Notes under the pieces: model-generated | Databases searched by the model: none | The model's input: the letters and a program-made list of their open reading frames with translations, nothing else | Told to the model about the DNA's origin: nothing | From: an uncultured bacterium | Lineage (GTDB): Bacteria > Actinomycetota > Acidimicrobiia > Spongiisociales > ZC4RG35 | Assembly: GCA_963753285.1 (NCBI GenBank) | Contig: CAVWBT010000010.1 | Coordinates: 240,481-304,480, forward strand | Direction of reading: 5' to 3' | DNA length: 64,000 nucleotides | Shown: positions 8,835 through 33,444 of the stretch, piece by piece | Layout of the letters: the number at the start of each line of letters is the position of its first letter | Position numbering within the stretch: the first letter of the stretch is position 1 | Position numbers and translations under genes: made by a program

Positions 8835-10046
8835 TCAACGGCTGCGCAGGGCGTTGCGAGCAGACTCGTGCGCCGCCGAGCGTATCCGTACTTCGCGCGG
8901 ATCGTCCACCAGATAGAACCCCATGCGGTTCATGGCGTAGCAGAACCCCATCCTGAGGTCGGGGTCGGCGAACCCCATCGAACCTCCTGCGCCGGGCGTT
9001 CCGAAGGCGGCGGGCGATCCAAAATCGAACCCGGGCCACGGCTTGCACATCCCGAGCGAGAACGCCGTGTCCATGTGGAGAACCTCGTCGTGTGGGCCTT
9101 CGGTCGGTGTCGTCGCTGGGACGGTGAGACTTGCCAGCGTTTCCTCGTCGATCCCGAGGCGGCGCCCGCCGGTTGCGAACTCGCCGTATGCGATGGCCAC
9201 GCTGCGCGACGTGCCGGTTCCGTTCGCTGCCGGTAGCTCGATGCGCCGCACATCCCGGTCGTTGTACCTGACGGGCATGCCCACGACCTTCGGGTTCGCA
9301 AAGGAACGCGCGGTGATCGACTTCGGGTTGAGGAACTTCCTCACGAAGGCGGTCGGGAGGGTGCGAATGTTCGCAATCATCTTGACCCGGTACCAGTCGC
9401 CCATGACTCGGGCAAGACGGTCTTCGGGGATGTCGTCGGGTAGACCGATGTGGAAGTCCAACCCCAGCGGCGCCGCGATTTCGTCGGCGAAGTAGCGGCC
9501 GACGGTGCGGTGCTTCGGATCGACCCGGCGGATCAACTCGGACTCGTACCACCCGAGCGTCACACCGTGGTAGCCGTGCCTCGTGCCAGGCTCCCACGCC
9601 GGGGCCTGTTTGCCGATCGCCGCTGCGACCGCGTCGGGGTCCCCGAGTGTCTCGAGATCCATCGGCTCGTCGATGGCGCACAGCCCTCCCTGGTGCGACA
9701 GCAGCGTCCGGACGGTCATCTCGGCCTTCCCGTTCGCCGCAAACTCCGGCCAGTACGCGGCAACCGGATCGTCGTAGGCGAAGAGTTGTCGCGAGTGAGC
9801 ATGGGCGACGGCGAGAGCCGACATGCCCTTCGTAGTGGAGAACATGTTGACGAGCGTGTCCCGCTGCCAGGCCAGTCCGGTTCTCGGGTTGGCGACGCCG
9901 GCCCAGAGATCCACGACGAGCTCGCCATCGACCACCACGGCGCAGGCCGCCCCGACTTCATGCCCATCGGCGAAGTTCTGCTCGAAGGCCTCCCGCACTC
10001 GCTCGAAGCCAGGCTCGGTGAAACCACCGATCGGTGTGTCGGTCAT
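8835..10046 (-). CDS. serine hydrolase, class C beta-lactamase / esterase family
   Basis: 403 aa with an S-x-x-K active-site motif (FSTTKGM) and a typical beta-lactamase-fold length. Confidence 0.8.
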   Translation of the reverse strand: MTDTPIGGFTEPGFERVREAFEQNFADGHEVGAACAVVVDGELVVDLWAGVANPRTGLAWQRDTLVNMFSTTKGMSALAVAHAHSRQLFAYDDPVAAYWPEFAANGKAEMTVRTLLSHQGGLCAIDEPMDLETLGDPDAVAAAIGKQAPAWEPGTRHGYHGVTLGWYESELIRRVDPKHRTVGRYFADEIAAPLGLDFHIGLPDDIPEDRLARVMGDWYRVKMIANIRTLPTAFVRKFLNPKSITARSFANPKVVGMPVRYNDRDVRRIELPAANGTGTSRSVAIAYGEFATGGRRLGIDEETLASLTVPATTPTEGPHDEVLHMDTAFSLGMCKPWPGFDFGSPAAFGTPGAGGSMGFADPDLRMGFCYAMNRMGFYLVDDPREVRIRSAAHESARNALRSR

Positions 10047-10193
10047 GGCAGGACTGCTTCCGGGAGACTCACCGGGACACTATCCGGACTGCGGCGACCC
10101 TGCCCTCCGTATCGAGGACAACGCGCTTCTGTCTCACGAGGCGTTGCACGGATCTCCGGGAATTCGAGCGGCGGTGTCCCCTAACGTCGGTCG

Positions 10194-11378
10194 ATGTCCA
10201 CCTCTCCGGTCGAACGGCTTCCGCGTCTCGTCACCGTTGTCCTCGGTCTCTCGGTCGTGGTCGGATTCGGGGTGTGGTTCTACGGCTACGGGGTCCTGCT
10301 CCAACCGATCGGTGTCGACACGGGCTGGTCGGAGGCGCTGCTGTCGTCGACGTACGGGGTTTCGATGTTCGGGTCCGGTGTGCTTGCCACGGTCGTGGGT
10401 CGTCTGCTGCCACGGAACGGATCGCGTGCCGTCTACGGAGTGGGTGCGGCCGTGGTCCTGCTCGCCTACTTCACACTCGCACAGGCGAGCTCACCGTGGC
10501 TGTTCGTGATCGTCGGCGTCGCGGCCGGGAGTGTCACCGGAGCTCTCGGGTACTACGCCGCGGTTCACACGATCATCGGCCACCTCGTTCCGCCCGCTGC
10601 CCGGGCGCGGACGATCACCACGAACACGCTGTGGGGTGCGATGGCCAGTCCCGTCTTCCTGCCGTTGATGGCATGGCTCGTCCTGGAGTTCGACTGGCGG
10701 ACGACTGTTCGGCTGACCGGTGCAGCGGTCGCCGGAGCCTTTGCGCTCGTCGCCGTCGCTGTCCCCGACATCAGGGGAGCAGCGGCTGTGACGCCATCGT
10801 TGCGGGCGGCGATCGCCTCCGCGGTGAGCGACCGCACGACGCGGGCGGTCCTCGCAACCACTCTGATCGGCGGAGTCGTCACGGCAATCGTGGTCCTCTA
10901 TCAGGTGCCGGCGATGGTGACGGCCGGACTCACGTTGGCGGTGGCCTCGTCGCTCGCCGGCGCGCGTGGATTCATGCAGTTGGGCGGCCGGATCCCGATG
11001 CCGTGGATGATCACCCGGTTCGGTTCGAGGACGACCCTGCGTGGAGCGCATCTCCTGACAGGTGTGGCCTGTCTGATGTTGCCATTCACGGGCGTGCTCC
11101 CGATCGCCGTCATGTTCGCGCTCGTCGCCGGACTGGCGATCGGCGCACTCGTCCCGGTCGAGAGCATCTTCACCGCCGACATCATCCCAACCGAGTCGCT
11201 CGGAGTCGTGCTGGGTGTGGCGTCATTGGCGCGCGGCGTCGGAGCGGCGCTCGGCCCCGCTCTCGGTGGCGGGCTGGCGAGTGCGGTCGGCAGCAGGACA
11301 CCGACACTCGTGGTCGCTGCGTCCCTCACGGCGCTGGCCGCGGCAATCGTCCCGATCCTGCGTTCAGGCCCGTCCTGA
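10194..11378 (+). CDS. MFS transporter
   Basis: 394 aa, ~12 predicted TM segments, two-halves architecture. Confidence 0.8.
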   Translation: MSTSPVERLPRLVTVVLGLSVVVGFGVWFYGYGVLLQPIGVDTGWSEALLSSTYGVSMFGSGVLATVVGRLLPRNGSRAVYGVGAAVVLLAYFTLAQASSPWLFVIVGVAAGSVTGALGYYAAVHTIIGHLVPPAARARTITTNTLWGAMASPVFLPLMAWLVLEFDWRTTVRLTGAAVAGAFALVAVAVPDIRGAAAVTPSLRAAIASAVSDRTTRAVLATTLIGGVVTAIVVLYQVPAMVTAGLTLAVASSLAGARGFMQLGGRIPMPWMITRFGSRTTLRGAHLLTGVACLMLPFTGVLPIAVMFALVAGLAIGALVPVESIFTADIIPTESLGVVLGVASLARGVGAALGPALGGGLASAVGSRTPTLVVAASLTALAAAIVPILRSGPS

Positions 11379-24609: not shown

Positions 24610-25032
24610 ATGAACGCCAGGGCGCAGCAAGCAGCACACCAGATCACCGAGGCGGGCGTCAGAACCGGCGAGCGACTCACCGATGTCGGTGAGATGATCG
24701 CCTCCGAAGCAGCCGAGATCGCCGATCGAATCGGGACTTGGCTCGCCGACAACGATCCGGTGGGCCAAGCCCGCGAGGTCGCCACAGAATCGCTTCACGT
24801 GGTCCGGGACTGGTCCTCGGCGCTTCCCGAGCGGATCGCAGCCGCACTGCCGGTCGTCGCCACGGTTCCTGCCAAGCCGAAGAAGCGGACGCTCATCGGG
24901 ATGTTCGCTCTGGGGGCGGCGGTGGCCTACTTCTTCGATCCGGCCTCGGGAGCGGCACGCCGGGACGCCGTCAAACAGCGGATTTCCGGGCTCTTCAGGC
25001 GCAACGCTCCAGATGAGGCCGCTTCGGGGTGA
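24610..25032 (+). CDS. hypothetical protein with C-terminal TM helix
   Basis: GGAGGT RBS. Helical N-terminus and one TM segment. Stop overlaps the next GTG (GTGA). Confidence 0.5.
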   Translation: MNARAQQAAHQITEAGVRTGERLTDVGEMIASEAAEIADRIGTWLADNDPVGQAREVATESLHVVRDWSSALPERIAAALPVVATVPAKPKKRTLIGMFALGAAVAYFFDPASGAARRDAVKQRISGLFRRNAPDEAASG

Positions 25033-26261: not shown

Positions 26262-27143
26262 ATGGAGATCCTCACCACCCCGCTTGCGCACTTCGACGCC
26301 CTCCCCGACTTCGGATACGAGAGCGCCTCCACCGACATCGGTGACGGCCTGGAAGTGCACCACGTCGAAGCCGGCGAAGGGCCGACGGTGCTGCTCATGC
26401 ACGGTCAGCCCACCTGGTCGTTCCTCTATCGGTCGATGATCGGGCCGTTGGTCGAGCACGGCTTCCGGATCGTGGCTCCCGATCTGATCGGCTTCGGCCG
26501 GTCTGCGAAGCCCCGTGAGATGAGCGACCACACCTACGAGCGGCACGTTTCGTGGATGTCGCGCTGGCTCGACGCGGTCGATCTCGACGGCGTCACGATG
26601 TTCGCACAGGACTGGGGCGGGCTCATCGGACTTCGCCTGCTCGCATCTCAACCGGATCGCTTCGCCCGGCTCGTCGTCGCCAACACCGGGCTCCCGACCG
26701 GACACCAGCGGATGCCGGAAGCCTTCTTCGCATGGCGCGAGTTCGTGCGCACGACACCAGACTTCGACTGCGGGCGCATCGTGCAGGGGGCGACGCTGCG
26801 GACGTTGAGCGACGAAGAGGTCGCCGCCTACAACGCTCCGTTCCCGGACGATTCGTATCGGGCGGGTCCGCGGGTGATGCCTTCGCTGGTCCCGACCTCG
26901 CCGGACGATCCCTCGTCGGAGCCGAACCAGGCGGCGTGGGCGGTTCTGTCCCGATGGGAGCGGCCCACGCTGACGTTGTTCTCCGACAGCGACCCGATCA
27001 CTGCCGGGGGAGAGCGCGTGTTCCAGTCGAAGGTGCCCGGCGCGTCCGGTCAGCCGCACACGACGATCGAGCACGCCGGCCACTTCCTCCAAGAGGACGC
27101 CGGGCCGCTGCTGGCCGATACGATGGCCGCATGGATGCGTTGA
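26262..27143 (+). CDS. haloalkane dehalogenase-like alpha/beta hydrolase
   Basis: HGQPTWSFLYR...DWGG nucleophile-elbow context typical of the DhaA/DhmA family. Confidence 0.8.
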   Translation: MEILTTPLAHFDALPDFGYESASTDIGDGLEVHHVEAGEGPTVLLMHGQPTWSFLYRSMIGPLVEHGFRIVAPDLIGFGRSAKPREMSDHTYERHVSWMSRWLDAVDLDGVTMFAQDWGGLIGLRLLASQPDRFARLVVANTGLPTGHQRMPEAFFAWREFVRTTPDFDCGRIVQGATLRTLSDEEVAAYNAPFPDDSYRAGPRVMPSLVPTSPDDPSSEPNQAAWAVLSRWERPTLTLFSDSDPITAGGERVFQSKVPGASGQPHTTIEHAGHFLQEDAGPLLADTMAAWMR

Positions 27144-28348
27144 CCCGGGTCATCGACGCCGTCGAACAACGGCACGACTCGTCGCCGAGTGTCGTGATCC
27201 GTTCGCCCGGACGAGTGAACCTGATCGGGGAGCACACCGACTACTCGCTGCTCCCCGTCATGCCCTTCGCCATCGACCAGGCCGTCTACATCGCAGTCTG
27301 CGAAGGACCGGACGGCATCGAAGTGGATTCGCTCACCCACCCCGACCCCGTGACGATCGAACTCGGGGGGGACCGATCCGAGCTCACCGGATGGCACCGG
27401 TACTTCGCCGCCGCCGTCGACGTTGTCGGATTCGTCGGCGGCGCACGAGTCCTCATCGATGCCGACCTCCCCGCAACCGGTGGTCTGTCGTCGTCGTCTG
27501 CCTTCACGGTCGGCGTGTTGATGGCACTCGGGACCTTCGCAGGTGACCCCCCGCAACGAGAGGAACTGCCGGAACTCGCGCTCGCCGCAGAGCGCTCGAT
27601 CGGTGTGGAGAGCGGGGCTATGGACCAGACCGTCATCTCGTTGGCGACCGAGGGGCATGCGCTCCGGATCGACTTCGACCCGTTCGGGACCAGGCACGTC
27701 CCCATCTCCGAGGATCTCGGAATCGTGGCCGCCTATTCCGGACGGGCGGCGCCGAAAGGCGGCGACGCCAACCACGCCTACAACTCCCGGGTGGTGGCCT
27801 GCCGTGCCGCCGCGATGCTGTTGGCCGCGGAGGAGGGCGTCGACCCCGGAAGCCCGCCGGTGCTGTCGAAGGTCCGTTCGTCGAACCTGGTCGAGACGCT
27901 CCCGACCGAGGCGAGCGCGGCCTCGGTTGCAGAGCGCCTCGGCGTCGACGTGGGCCGGATGGTCAGGCTCACGGCGACCGAGTTCGATCCGGACGTCGAG
28001 CTTCCGATCCAGAACGTCGCCGCCCATGTGCTGTCGGAGGCGAAGCGGGTCGACGAAGCCGAGGCGGCGCTCATGGCCGAGGACTACATCGAACTCGGCC
28101 GGCTGTTGGATGCCTCCCACGAGTCACTCGGGCACTTCGGTGCGACGTCGCCTGCGCTCGACCGGCTCACCGGGGCGATGAACCAGGCGGGCGCCTACGG
28201 GGCTCGGCTCACCGGCGCAGGATTCGGCGGCTATGCCATCGGCATCTGCGCACTCGACCGCATCGACGCGGTGATCGAGGCCTCCGAACAGGCAACCGGC
28301 GGCCCGGCATTCCGGGTGCGGCCCTCGGCGGGCGTGTCCGGAGTCTGA
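27131..28348 (+). CDS. galK: galactokinase (GHMP kinase)
   Basis: GalK signature RVNLIGEHTDY and the GHMP motif PTGGLSSSSA. ATG at 27131 overlaps the dehalogenase 3' end. Confidence 0.85.
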   Translation: MDALTRVIDAVEQRHDSSPSVVIRSPGRVNLIGEHTDYSLLPVMPFAIDQAVYIAVCEGPDGIEVDSLTHPDPVTIELGGDRSELTGWHRYFAAAVDVVGFVGGARVLIDADLPATGGLSSSSAFTVGVLMALGTFAGDPPQREELPELALAAERSIGVESGAMDQTVISLATEGHALRIDFDPFGTRHVPISEDLGIVAAYSGRAAPKGGDANHAYNSRVVACRAAAMLLAAEEGVDPGSPPVLSKVRSSNLVETLPTEASAASVAERLGVDVGRMVRLTATEFDPDVELPIQNVAAHVLSEAKRVDEAEAALMAEDYIELGRLLDASHESLGHFGATSPALDRLTGAMNQAGAYGARLTGAGFGGYAIGICALDRIDAVIEASEQATGGPAFRVRPSAGVSGV

Positions 28349-28375
28349 TCGGGAATGGGCCGGTAGGGTGCCGGC

Positions 28376-29053
28376 ATGGCGAACGACGCAACCCTCATCG
28401 ACCAGGCCGGCAGACCATGGAGGCTCTCCGAGCAACTCGACGGCGCGGCGCTGCTGGTCTTCCTACGCGGCGACTGGTGACCGTACTGCAACGGCCAGCT
28501 GGTCAGCCTGGCATCACGACACGACGAGTTCCTCGCGGCCGGCGCACGGCTGTTCGGGGTGAGCATCGATTCGCCCGCCCAGAACGCCGCCATGGTCGAG
28601 AAGCTCCTCCTTCCGTTCCCGTTGCTGTCCGACCCAGACCGCAGCCTGATGATCGAGCCGATGGGTGTCGCCGACCCGAACGATGTCCGCCGGCTCGCCA
28701 GACCGGCGATGATCCTGGTCGGAACCGAGGGATCTGAACACTGGCGGTTCGTGTCGCGGGACTTCGCCGACCGGCTCCCCAACGACGAGGTCCTCGAGCA
28801 CGTCAGACAACTCGGTCTGCCATCTGCAACCCAGCCGCCGCCAGACCTCGGTCCCGTCGAGCCGGGGGAGAGGGCGATGCCGTTCGAAGGTCTGTTCCAC
28901 TACCTCAGGGGTGCCCGTTTCGCCGCGCTGGCCATGGGTCTGCGACACAAGGACCTCGGCGAGGTGATCAAGGAGGACTCGAAGGCGTACGTCGCCGAAA
29001 TGGACGAGATGCTGGAGGCGGTGAAGTCGCTCACCGAGCGTCGCCAACGATGA
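28376..29053 (+). CDS. peroxiredoxin-fold (AhpC/TSA-like) redoxin with in-frame TGA at catalytic position: candidate selenoprotein (W-U-P-Y-C)
   Basis: ATG at 28376 opens MANDATLIDQAGRPWRLSEQLDGAALLVFLRGDW-TGA-PYCNGQLV.... The same frame continues into the listed ORF 28559..29053. TGA at 28478-28480 replaces the first Cys of the redox motif. A stem-loop with a GGUC apical loop lies 13 nt downstream. Confidence 0.55.
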
Positions 29054-29108
29054 TCGATGGCCGGGCTCTCGGCCCGGCCATCGTACGTATCGGTGTTGGT
29101 GAAGACGC

Positions 29109-29999
29109 TCAGTTCTTGTCGACGAGCACGACCGTGTAGTCGTCAAAGGGTGATCCGCCGAAGTCGACGGCGTTCACGGCAGCGATCTGGCTGCCCTTGG
29201 CCGCGATCGTCGTCGGGATGTTGAATGCAGGATCGGTGATCGTGTCGACGATCGTGCCCGACGTGAGCGTGCCGGACAGCTTGATCTTGGCGATCTGGTT
29301 CAGCCTGTTCTGCATCACGTACAGCGTCCTGCCTTCGAGCAGGATCCCGTCACCGGAGACAACGGTGTCGCCACCGAGATCGATCAGCGCACTCTCACCG
29401 GTCTCGGGATCGACCGTGTACAGCTCTCCCTTCGACGAGTTGACGATGATGAGGGTCCCGCCGTCGGCGGTGGCCTCGATGCCGTTCGTGTTGAAGCCCG
29501 GCACGAAGGCTGCTGCAGGCCCGCTGAGCGAGATCACCTCGACACCGTCGGATCCGTCGGCGCTCACGCGATAGAGCACTGGAGCGAACGAGTTCGTGAA
29601 GTAGACCGAGTCGCCCGCCACGATGGCGTCGTTGACGAATCCGAGCCCGAAGTCGTACGTGTTGACCGTCTCACCGGTCCGGCTGTCGTAGGCGGCTGCA
29701 CTCCCTGACGGACCGCCGGCGGCCCAGACGAACTTGGTGGCGTTGTCGTACGCCAGGCCAACCGAGGGAACGATTGCTGGTTCGGTGACCAGGTAGCTCG
29801 TCTCGCCGGTCCGGTAGTCGCCGACGACGATCTGACCAGTGGTCAGCGAGCCGGTGTAGAAGGTGTTGCCGTCGCCACTGACGATGCCTTCTGGCGCCAA
29901 TCCGTTGGGGGAATTCCCGGCGGGCAGTGCGATGATCGACGGGAAGGACGCCGCCGCCATCGACAGGACCGCGACGACCGAGATGATCATTGTGCGCAT
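29109..29999 (-). CDS. secreted beta-propeller protein (SMP-30/gluconolactonase/NHL-like)
   Basis: ATG at 29999 with GGAGAG RBS. Signal peptide, then repetitive Gly/Thr-rich beta-strand blades. Confidence 0.6.
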   Translation of the reverse strand: MRTMIISVVAVLSMAAASFPSIIALPAGNSPNGLAPEGIVSGDGNTFYTGSLTTGQIVVGDYRTGETSYLVTEPAIVPSVGLAYDNATKFVWAAGGPSGSAAAYDSRTGETVNTYDFGLGFVNDAIVAGDSVYFTNSFAPVLYRVSADGSDGVEVISLSGPAAAFVPGFNTNGIEATADGGTLIIVNSSKGELYTVDPETGESALIDLGGDTVVSGDGILLEGRTLYVMQNRLNQIAKIKLSGTLTSGTIVDTITDPAFNIPTTIAAKGSQIAAVNAVDFGGSPFDDYTVVLVDKN

Positions 30000-30040
30000 G
30001 TTCTCTCCTCTGATTGCACTGTGGGATGGTCGACGGGCTG

Positions 30041-30665
30041 TTACCCGATCAGCCGAATCTGACACCTGAGATGTCGATCGGCTTCAGACCGACGTCGAAC
30101 TCGATCCGGTCGGACCCGTCGGCAACACCGAGGATCGGTATCGCCGGCGTCAGGCCCGAATTCGACCCGAACGATCCGCCTGACTCCGTTCGGGTGCCGC
30201 AGATGAGGTCGGAACCAGACGGCCTCCGGGGTGTGATGAACACAGAAGAACTGTTGCGGGTGCCCCGTGATCGGCAGCAGGGTGAAGCCGGCGGTCAGCT
30301 CCGATCCATCGGTTCGGGGCGCCGGCCGGCTGAACCACGTCGGTTCGCCCGCATCGAGTCCTGCATCCCTGACCTCGGATCCGGCGTCGACGACCGATGT
30401 CGCCCGACAGGCGAAGTGGCTGAACCCGCTCCGCTCCGCCTGCGAGGTGGTCGGCGACCCGTCTCGCGAAACCGACTGCTGGGATTCGAGTTGGATCGAC
30501 GACGGTGACCAGTTCGATGTAGACGCGTTCGAACACGACGAGCCGGTTGGCGGTGCCGAACGGGTGCGCTGCCTCGGGGGTGACGACGAATCCGAGGTCG
30601 GCGAGCGCACCGGCGGCCGCGTCCAGCTCGGCGACGGGAAGGACCAGATGGTCGAGCTCGGTCAT
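30041..30665 (-). CDS. glyoxalase-like domain (PF13468-like) protein, apparent internal frameshift
   Basis: N-terminal frame (from ATG 30665) has LDHLVLPV...HPFGTANRLVVFERVYIELV. The C-terminal conserved HPNGV block is in another frame (listed ORF 30041..30610). Confidence 0.5.
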
Positions 30666-31335: not shown

Positions 31336-32055
31336 ATGGTGGTGCAGCTGTTCGTCACGTGTCTGGTGGATGGTTTCGCGCCGCAGGTCGGCAGGGCGAC
31401 CGTCGCGGTGCTCGAGTCCAACGGGCAGACCGTGGAGTTCCCGGTCGACCAGACCTGCTGTGGGCAGCCCGCCCTCAACGCCGGGGTTCGTGACGACGCC
31501 CGCGCGATGGCGGCTCACACGGTTGCCGTACTCGATGAGACGGATGGCCCGATCGTCGTCCCGTCGGGATCGTGTGCCGAGATGATGATCCACCGCTATC
31601 CCGAGCTGCTGTCGTCGGGGCCCGAGGCTGCCGCAGCCAAACGAGTGGCCAATCGCGTTCGCGAGCTCACACAATTCCTCACCGACGACCTCGGGATCGA
31701 AGTCCAGGCGCAGGGATCCGGGACGGTGACCATCCACAAGTCGTGCCACGGACTCCGGGGGCTCGGCATCGACACCGAGATCGAATCACTCGTCGACGGC
31801 GTCGACGGCATCGAGCGATGCGAGTTGCCAGGCGCCGACGAGTGCTGTGGGTTCGGCGGTCTCTTCTCGATCGAGCTTCCGGAGGTCTCGTCGGCCATCC
31901 TGCAGACCAAGATCGACAACATCATCGCCTCGGGCGCCGACACCGTCGTGGGCGGCGACATCAGCTGTCTCATGCACATCGGCGGTGGCCTGCATCGCCA
32001 GGGGGCGAACGTCGAAACCCGCCACGTGGTCGAACTGCTGGTCGACGAGACATGA
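31336..32055 (+). CDS. lutA: lactate utilization protein A (Fe-S oxidoreductase, CCG domains)
   Basis: Two CCG-type cysteine motifs (QTCCGQP..., CCGFGG). First gene of lutABC. Confidence 0.8.
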   Translation: MVVQLFVTCLVDGFAPQVGRATVAVLESNGQTVEFPVDQTCCGQPALNAGVRDDARAMAAHTVAVLDETDGPIVVPSGSCAEMMIHRYPELLSSGPEAAAAKRVANRVRELTQFLTDDLGIEVQAQGSGTVTIHKSCHGLRGLGIDTEIESLVDGVDGIERCELPGADECCGFGGLFSIELPEVSSAILQTKIDNIIASGADTVVGGDISCLMHIGGGLHRQGANVETRHVVELLVDET

Positions 32056-33444
32056 CGCCGGTCACGTTTCGCGAGCGGTCGACCAGAGAGCTCGGCACCC
32101 AGAAGGTGGTCAACATCGGCAAGGCCACTCGACGGAAGACCGCTGACCGACTCACCGCCTCTGCCGCCTACCCGCCGATGGAGGCTATGCGCGATCGGGC
32201 TCGGGAGATCCGGCTCCAGACGCTGGCGAATCTCGAGCGAGTACCTCGCCCAGTTCGCCGATGCGGTGGAGCGAGCCGGCGGGCACGTCTACTTCGCCGG
32301 CGACGCCGACGAGGCCAACCGCTACGTTTCCCAGCTGGCGGCCGATCGAGGCGTGCGCTCGATCGTGAAGTCGAAGTCGATGGTCACCGAGGAGATCGAG
32401 CTCAACCATCATCTCGAGTCGAACGGTCTCGACGTCGTCGAGACCGATCTCGGGGAGTTCATCGTCCAGATCTCGGGGGATCGGCCGGTGCACATCATCT
32501 CACCGGTGATGCACAAGAACCGCTACGAGGTCGCCGAGCTGTTCGCCGACGTGCTCGGCATGGAGTACAGCGACGATCCGGTCGCACTCAACGCCGCTGC
32601 ACGGCAGCACCTCCGATCGATCTTTCTCGGCGCCGACATGGGGATCTCCGGCGTCAACTTCGGGGTCGCCGACACCGGAACCATCTGCACCGTCACCAAC
32701 GAGGGGAACGCCCGCCTCACCACCACGGCGCCGCGTATCCATGTGGCGATCATGGGCATGGAGCGGCTCGTGCCGAACGCCGGCGACCTGACCGTCATGC
32801 TCGAAGTCCTGGCCCGATCGGGGACCGGCCAGGCGCTCACCGTCTACACCAACATGATGACCGGGCCACGGGCGCCGGACGAACAGGACGGTCCGGACGA
32901 GCTGCACGTCGTCATCCTCGACAACGGCCGGAGTCGAGCCCTCGCCTCCTCCTCGGCGGAGATCCTCGCCTGCATCCGCTGCGGCGCGTGCCTCAACGTG
33001 TGCCCGGTGTTCCGCGAGGCCGGCGGGCACGCCTACGGCGGTGTCTATCCCGGCCCGATCGGTGCCGTTCTCACACCGGCATTGTTCGGTCACGACGAAT
33101 GGGGCGATCTTCCGTTCGCGTCGTCGCTGTGCGGCGCCTGCAAGGACGCGTGCCCCATCCGCATCGACATCCCGAGCCTGTTGCTCGAACAGCGAGCCGA
33201 AGCCATGAACCGGCGCGGCGGCGAGTTCGCCTGGTTGAAGCCGGGCATGGCCGCCTACCGCCGAATCGCCACGAACCCGGTGCTGTGGCGCGGATTCCTG
33301 GCAGCCGGGGGCGTGTTCGGCAAGGCATCGGGAGATTGGGTGACGCGGCTCCCGTTCCACGCCGGCAACTGGACGAGCACGCGTGACCTGCCGGCCCCGG
33401 CGACACAGTCGTTCCACTCGTGGTGGAAGGAGCATCGGGCCTGA
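32052..33444 (+). CDS. lutB: lactate utilization protein B (4Fe-4S ferredoxin + LUD domain), frameshift near 32235
   Basis: The N-terminus up to LQTLANL is in one frame (ATG 32052 overlaps the lutA stop). The conserved block YLAQFADAVERAGGHVYFA..., two CxxCxxC ferredoxin motifs and the rest are in the frame of listed ORF 32266..33444. Confidence 0.7.

Follow-up and report, generated by a model that had tools for sequence, protein, structure and literature searches.

Selenoproteins of the Prx-like thiol:disulfide oxidoreductase type, in which a PF00578 domain carries a UxxC or UxxU motif, have been described as computational predictions, and the same type was named 'Prx-like 1' in the GOS survey (PMC13188914, PMC2398784, PMC1794560). 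PrxU (TxxU; NF040737) is also a selenoprotein of the AhpC/TSA family, but its Sec replaces the peroxidatic Cys. Proteins of the ResA/TlpA type are membrane-anchored and extracytoplasmic. The SECIS of E. coli fdhF and of Moorella thermoacetica fdhA is a hairpin within the coding sequence, located roughly 11–13 nt past the UGA, with a GGUC apical loop that exposes G and U, and with one bulged base. With respect to Sec decoding in Acidimicrobiia, the literature that we searched yielded only a 2026 preprint on one order, which reports that all 84 complete genomes of Actinomarina, a separate Acidimicrobiia lineage, carry selA, selB, selC and selD (bioRxiv 10.64898/2026.04.03.716425).

The window analyzed here is a 64-kb stretch of DNA from an uncultured bacterium of the Acidimicrobiia, with a G+C content of 64–68% along its whole length. 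On the forward strand, a single frame runs from the ATG at 28376 to the TGA at 29051–29053 (225 codons plus stop) and holds one internal TGA, codon 35, at 28478–28480, within the peptide VFLRGDW-*-PYCNGQ. A first-pass annotation had proposed that this frame continues through the internal TGA into the open reading frame listed at 28559..29053 and encodes an AhpC/TSA-like fold. Translation bore out the first point, since the listed frame is in register with the ATG at an offset of 183 nt (61 codons). The second was confirmed with Cys put in for the stop: Pfam AhpC-TSA (PF00578) matches residues 2–119 with E = 1.2e-21 (77.4 bits versus a cut-off of 26), and because the match covers these residues, the domain spans the TGA. 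None of the other in-frame TGAs of the window lies in a redox-motif context, and those that we inspected look like borders of neighboring genes that share a frame. The internal TGA is almost certainly decoded as selenocysteine, yielding a 225-residue redox protein. As an overall explanation we strongly favor a selenoprotein gene at 28376–29053 in which a hairpin directs Sec insertion, and whose product is a UxxC selenol/thiol oxidoreductase built on a peroxiredoxin fold. The first residue of the motif is U35 and the second is Cys38 (TGC, 28487..28489, forward strand), which is invariant in our protein alignment A1; the tryptic peptide that bears Sec35 would be GDW-U-PYCNGQLVSLASR.

Structural features were taken from the AlphaFold model of a homologue of the same length, P0017, which is 59% identical (pLDDT 93.5, pTM 0.89). 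Foldseek matched this model to 3hjp, 5epf and 1xxu with target-normalised TM-scores of 0.84–0.86 and rmsd values of 1.5–2.3 Å over approximately 150 columns, the best superposition being that on 3hjp (TM-score 0.86, target-normalised; rmsd 1.5 Å; 149 columns), and the P0017 model thus has the fold of a peroxiredoxin. Together with the Pfam match, these data delimit a BCP/AhpE-like thioredoxin-fold domain at about residues 2–146 (28379..28813, forward strand). It is followed by a conserved C-terminal extension (28877..29050, forward strand) that is predicted to form a hairpin of two long helices, residues 170–191 and 196–223 in the P0017 model. The extension matches no Pfam family and lies beyond what solved peroxiredoxin structures cover, as the PDB matches end at approximately 150 columns; Y176, G179, A180, F182, R190, M209 and D210 within it are invariant in alignment A1.

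Active-site columns were assigned by profile alignment to solved structures. Sec35 occupies the column of the Thr of TxxC in BCP and of the N-terminal Cys of CxxC in ResA, while Cys38 occupies those of the BCP peroxidatic Cys and of the C-terminal Cys of the ResA motif. The TGA had initially been placed at the peroxidatic or redox Cys; this needs correcting, as U35 falls on the N-terminal position of CxxC and the peroxidatic position in the profile alignment belongs to Cys38. Arg31 stands in the column of the conserved BCP Pro, and the canonical PxxxTxxC motif is reduced to R31...U35..C38, where the Cys column alone is kept. In the sequence alignment, the column of the catalytic Arg, which canonical peroxiredoxins carry on the strand that follows the Cys-bearing helix, holds an invariant Pro110, and the neighboring Arg109 is Leu in some members. 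The segment W-U-P-Y-C aligns with W-C-x-x-C of ResA, which places UxxC in the CxxC register. Judging from these alignments, the protein would carry a thioredoxin-type UxxC center on a peroxiredoxin scaffold stripped of the Pro/Thr/Arg triad. The sequence reads without an N-terminal hydrophobic segment, and the product is predicted to be a cytoplasmic protein with a BCP/PrxQ-like fold. Its activity is most likely that of a selenol/thiol oxidoreductase with a selenenylsulfide cycle, in which the Sec35 selenolate would attack an oxidized substrate (disulfide, sulfenate or peroxide), and the resulting Sec35–Cys38 selenenylsulfide would then be reduced again by a thioredoxin-type reductant.

When compared to the systems described above, the gene is a real selenoprotein gene that belongs to the known Prx-like UxxC kind. 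Like the described members, it encodes a PF00578 domain above cut-off, has its UxxC motif at the N-terminal end of helix 1, and contains an intragenic hairpin just past the UGA, with a function that is inferred in both cases. The Prx-like selenoproteins were first listed in Deltaproteobacteria, whereas the present family occurs in Acidimicrobiia, and it differs from the described kind by its conserved two-helix C-terminal extension and by having Sec in every one of the 88 related loci that we fetched. The fold, the LSDPD segment and the location of Cys38 in the peroxidatic column are shared with BCP/PrxQ and AhpE (3hjp, 5epf, 2ywn, 2cx3, 1xxu), but the Pro/Thr/Arg columns are occupied by Arg31, Sec35 and Pro110, and these proteins lack the additional C-terminal domain. 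The Sec lies three residues before the position of Sec in PrxU. The register of the motif is identical to that of ResA/TlpA (1st9, 3c71), with Sec35 on the nucleophilic N-terminal Cys, although the present protein, unlike its membrane-anchored counterparts, has no N-terminal hydrophobic segment. Scores against curated models tell the same family apart: the best NCBIfam match, NF040769 ('SelL-related redox protein'), reaches 41.8 bits versus a cut-off of 120 over residues 4–91 (36–54 bits for the Cys homologues described below), the PrxU model NF040737 reaches 21.2 bits versus 270, and the ResA model NF002854 17 bits versus 170. The protein falls outside the curated NF040769, PrxU and ResA models, and it is not a canonical peroxiredoxin.

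To recover Cys homologues, 1.84 billion cluster representatives were searched exhaustively with HMMER. Full-length relatives at 41–49% identity to P0017 read RGDW-C-[PAS]-[YFW]-C, and the C-terminal extension is partly present in them. The RGDW-C-xx-C motif is present in P0139, P0141, P0144, P0150, P0157 and others, and the family therefore displays the pairing of Sec and Cys forms by which predicted selenoproteins are defined. At the DNA level, the Cys homologues at loci L089–L094 have TGC at the codon aligned to Sec. An alignment to Cys homologues had been suggested in the first-pass annotation, and in it U falls on the Cys that is N-terminal in CxxC.

The candidate bacterial SECIS-type hairpin, GCCAGCU-GGUC-AG(C)CUGGC, lies at 28494..28512 on the forward strand, 13 nt past the TGA, and its position, GGUC loop and spacing had been given correctly at the outset. 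The lower stem pairs 28494–28497 with 28509–28512 and the upper stem pairs 28498–28500 with 28505–28507, closing a GGUC tetraloop at 28501–28504; comparison favors 28508 over 28507 as the bulge. The element appears to resemble the fdhF/fdhA SECIS in its GGUC loop, bulge and spacing, but it has a shorter stem (4 + 3 bp), with the bulge on the 3' side. By analogy with SECIS of the fdhF type, a ribosome arriving at UGA 28478–28480 would encounter the hairpin in the mRNA, which would recruit SelB-GTP-Sec-tRNASec; Sec would be inserted at the UGA and translation would go on.

Judged from the window sequence by itself, the hairpin is not significant and counts as weak evidence. Folding of the region, as had been recommended, gave a stability that does not exceed that of shuffled sequence (minimum free energy of 28470–28540 versus shuffles, z = +1.15). 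An equally good hairpin with a G-containing loop is found at the same spacing from 8% of all TGA trinucleotides of the window, and an equally good fold is reached by 19% of the synonymous recodings of this peptide. Since the shuffle z-score, the TGA base rate and the recoding do not discriminate, none of them was used as support. No relevant Rfam family was found, either at the gathering threshold over the whole window or in an E-value scan of 28350–28650.

The comparative pattern, by contrast with the window alone, exceeds chance. We aligned 77 distinct hairpin sequences (alignment A2, in which the window coordinate equals 28471 + column). In the proposed structure (lower stem, columns 23–26 with 38–41; upper stem, columns 27–29 with 34–36; GGUC loop, columns 30–33; bulged base, column 37), 95.7% of the cells are paired, versus 4–49% if the 3' side is shifted by one to three columns. 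The third base of the Ser codon, which does not vary, takes part in pairing, and column 37, which does, forms the bulge. One pair, columns 24–40, covaries (CG 65, AU 4, UG 4, GU 2, UA 1), synonymous changes of the Gly codon from GGC to GGA, GGG or GGT being matched by Ala to Ser or Thr changes on the opposite strand; this probably reflects only two or three independent events, and because a single pair is involved, the covariation is modest. Folding energies in the family range from -8.7 to -12 kcal/mol.

Codon usage points to the same element. At the hairpin, Val43 is encoded by GTC in 60/60 sequences and Ser44 by AGC in 59/60, as compared to 51% and 20%, respectively, elsewhere in the same genes; Gln41 is CAG in 73/74 (76% elsewhere). 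Synonymous entropy is lowered at codons 38–44 only. The Cys homologue at L092 encodes the same NGQLVSLA peptide through CTC/TCC/CTC codons and forms no hairpin (-3.0 kcal/mol), and the hairpin is missing from three further Cys forms. In another Cys homologue, P0139 (locus L090, 1976–2035), a SECIS-like hairpin is retained, UGCCAGCU-GAUG-AG-U-UUGGCA, with an energy of -8.5 kcal/mol; it may be the relic of a switch from Sec to Cys.

A variant clade of 12 sequences, with the peptide NGQLAVMA, differs from the fdhF/fdhA arrangement by a shifted hairpin and an AGUU loop. Its hairpin, ACGGCC-AGUU-GGCCGU, lies 3 nt nearer the UGA, contains GU in the loop and has an energy of approximately -10 kcal/mol. 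An alternative fold, GGCC-AGCU-GGUC (columns 21–25 with 30–34), was also considered; it suits the main clade less well, with 82% of cells paired and no excess over shuffles, and was rejected there, being preferred solely in the variant clade.

Nine loci of the variant clade carry, directly upstream of the family gene, a second gene with a conserved in-frame TGA. It occupies 2163–2957 in locus L073, with the TGA at 2319, and is also found in L077, L078, L079, L081, L082, L083, L086 and L087. Its product consists of an AhpC-TSA/Redoxin domain followed by a TPR-like tail, and carries the motif LLLF[FM]WGSW-U-[GAR]C; the best match is NCBIfam NF041054, 'ResA-like WAxxUGC motif-containing protein', at 150 bits versus a cut-off of 300. 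A conserved hairpin, GCUGCC-CGGGU-GGCAGC, follows its UGA at a distance of approximately 17 nt. This tandem arrangement indicates that organisms carrying the family own at least two genes of selenoprotein type, and they are therefore predicted to decode Sec.

In the 64-kb window, scans for tRNAs, Rfam families and motifs detected neither a tRNA-Sec nor a signature of SelA, SelB or SelD; likewise, no SelA, SelB or SelD motif was found in 410 kb of related flanks, and no tRNA-Sec in the 60 loci scanned. Indirect support for Sec machinery comes from the second selenoprotein-type gene adjoining the first in related contigs and from the sel genes reported in Actinomarinales. A 93-nt 'tRNA-Pro (cgg)' called by ARAGORN at 24644–24736 on the reverse strand was not taken for a tRNA-Sec. 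It looks like ordinary G+C-rich DNA without evident tRNA features, and since Rfam shows no tRNA anywhere in the window, it is probably a false positive.

That no Sec machinery was found in the window or in the related flanks is what could be expected if the TGA were read through without Sec, a near-cognate or suppressor tRNA inserting Trp, Cys or Gly and the hairpin acting as a general stimulator. Some database calls do give Trp at this position, but they merely mirror the translation table. We consider such a readthrough very unlikely: the codon is located at the nucleophilic position of CxxC, where distant homologues have Cys, as is classic for Sec/Cys pairs; in spacing and in its G-U loop the hairpin matches a bacterial SECIS; and a second gene of a recognized selenoprotein type adjoins the first in related contigs. 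To our knowledge, no SelB-independent readthrough system of this kind has been described in bacteria.

The Sec reading is further borne out by conservation of the codon. The 88 loci fetched (4 GTDB species representatives, 2 of them labelled Acidimicrobiia MAGs, 80 JGI metagenome contigs and 4 exact look-ups) represent Acidimicrobiia MAGs and metagenomes, and encode proteins 43–88% identical to that of the window. TGA stands at the equivalent of codon 35 in 88/88 of them (89/89 including the window), and not one has a Cys codon there, despite the use of two search patterns of which one, DWC[PA]YCN, was biased towards Cys forms. In the family alignment, the 34 codons 5' of the TGA keep their amino acids while synonymous sites vary: an invariant Asp is GAC in 36 sequences and GAT in 34, Arg31 is written with six codons and Gly32 with four. 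This segment is therefore translated in the same frame. TGA also terminates 52/74 family genes, including that of the window, which shows that the standard code applies in the hosts and that recoding of the internal TGA is local.

These observations bear on the possibility that a TGC or TGT Cys codon was turned into TGA in a pseudogene or by a sequencing error. The broken frames of lutB and of a Glyoxalase_3-like gene elsewhere in the window could speak for such an event. However, the TGA recurs in 88 independent loci with identities as low as 43%, the frame is intact before and after it, and the upstream part is under purifying selection as protein, which leaves this explanation with scarcely any probability.

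The same upstream conservation bears on how the family is recorded in public databases. A search of 5.8 billion proteins yielded hundreds of close relatives, nearly all of them 150–183 aa long and covering just the C-terminal 68–80% of the query, because gene callers restart past an internal stop. The identical public protein for the window gene is a 153-aa call that begins past the TGA. If such calls were right, translation would start at GTG 28559 or at Met73 (as in P0002), and the 34 upstream codons would be non-coding or a separate small ORF; indeed, almost all public calls begin past the TGA, and small upstream ORFs of 36–38 aa are called in L002 and L003. However, the shortened products lack strands beta1–beta3 and the redox motif, both the Pfam match and the structural superposition start from residues 2–5, and the upstream segment is conserved as protein, which makes a downstream start extremely improbable. 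The start position and N-terminal peptide of the full-length gene are kept in relatives.

Two 'full-length' database matches, P0017 and P0085, read RGDW-W-PYC. The DNA behind one of them (locus L001) has TGA at the Trp position, and this protein was therefore called with a table in which TGA is Trp. Genome-wide reassignment of TGA to Trp or Gly (code 4 or 25), as these two calls would imply, is of negligible probability given that TGA ends 52/74 family genes at a conserved C-terminus, that P0085 overruns the family end by 95 residues once TGA is read through, and that the genome has a G+C content of 66%. Taken together, the TGA in 89/89 loci, the translated upstream segment and the TGA terminators thus rule against a pseudogene, a sequencing error, a downstream start and a reassigned code alike. 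The selenoprotein gene with a U-x-x-C motif that had been claimed from the window stands, with TGA in all 88 relatives, Cys in distant homologues and a hairpin under RNA-level selection. As a separate observation, P0121 is frameshifted, as is the L002 member beyond approximately codon 60 (about 10000–10531 of the locus), which suggests error-prone assemblies among the relatives.

Within the window, the selenoprotein gene begins 27 nt after galK, which ends at 28348. The galK frame (26552–28348, forward strand) is 598 aa long, but its galactokinase domains begin at approximately residue 207 and its upstream part overlaps an alpha/beta-hydrolase gene (26262–27143) in another frame; for these reasons the true galK start is probably near 27150. 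Directly past the selenoprotein stop codon, a G+C-rich, perfect 13-bp inverted repeat (29055..29083; -27.6 kcal/mol) separates the gene from a convergent one at 29109–30065. The repeat resembles a terminator stem and could function as one; it is missed by a consensus terminator scan because it has no T tract. The neighbors include genes for a class II ribonucleotide reductase, an aldo-keto reductase, a deaminase, an alpha/beta hydrolase and an HhH-GPD glycosylase, as well as lutABC; the neighborhood is syntenic with locus L002, and none of the flanking genes has a link to selenium metabolism.

The first-pass annotation had remarked on indel-type disruptions elsewhere in the window, and two were found by comparison with L002 orthologues. 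lutB (32052–33438, forward strand) is split, with residues 1–62 at 32052–32237 and residues 25–462 at 32116–33438, and a Glyoxalase_3/DJ-1-like gene (30179–30665, reverse strand) is split at approximately 30431. Both cases represent pseudogenes or else indels of the assembly, and the frame breaks thus indicate that the assembly or the genome is imperfect.

The selenoprotein gene introduces no new principle; predictions of Prx-like UxxC selenoproteins go back to the mid-2000s. We tentatively suggest, as a joint reading that may well prove too broad, that it represents a distinct and uncurated selenoprotein family, in which a BCP-derived fold lost its triad and gained UxxC and a C-terminal helical hairpin, which contains Sec obligately in Acidimicrobiia of soil, sediment and marine origin, and which uses two SECIS architectures, one clade being arranged in tandem with a WAxxUGC-type gene. 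If this were true, Sec decoding would be common in high-G+C Acidimicrobiia, current annotation would shorten the family systematically, and its chemistry could depart from that of both peroxiredoxins and ResA-type reductases.

As annotated, the window gene and nearly all of its public relatives stand as N-terminally shortened fragments without a redox center, and recognition of the Sec codon gives back the complete enzyme. The family also offers a test system, with a compact SECIS, a Sec/Cys contrast and one peptide written in different codons in a Cys homologue, and it can serve as a marker of selenocysteine use in Acidimicrobiia.
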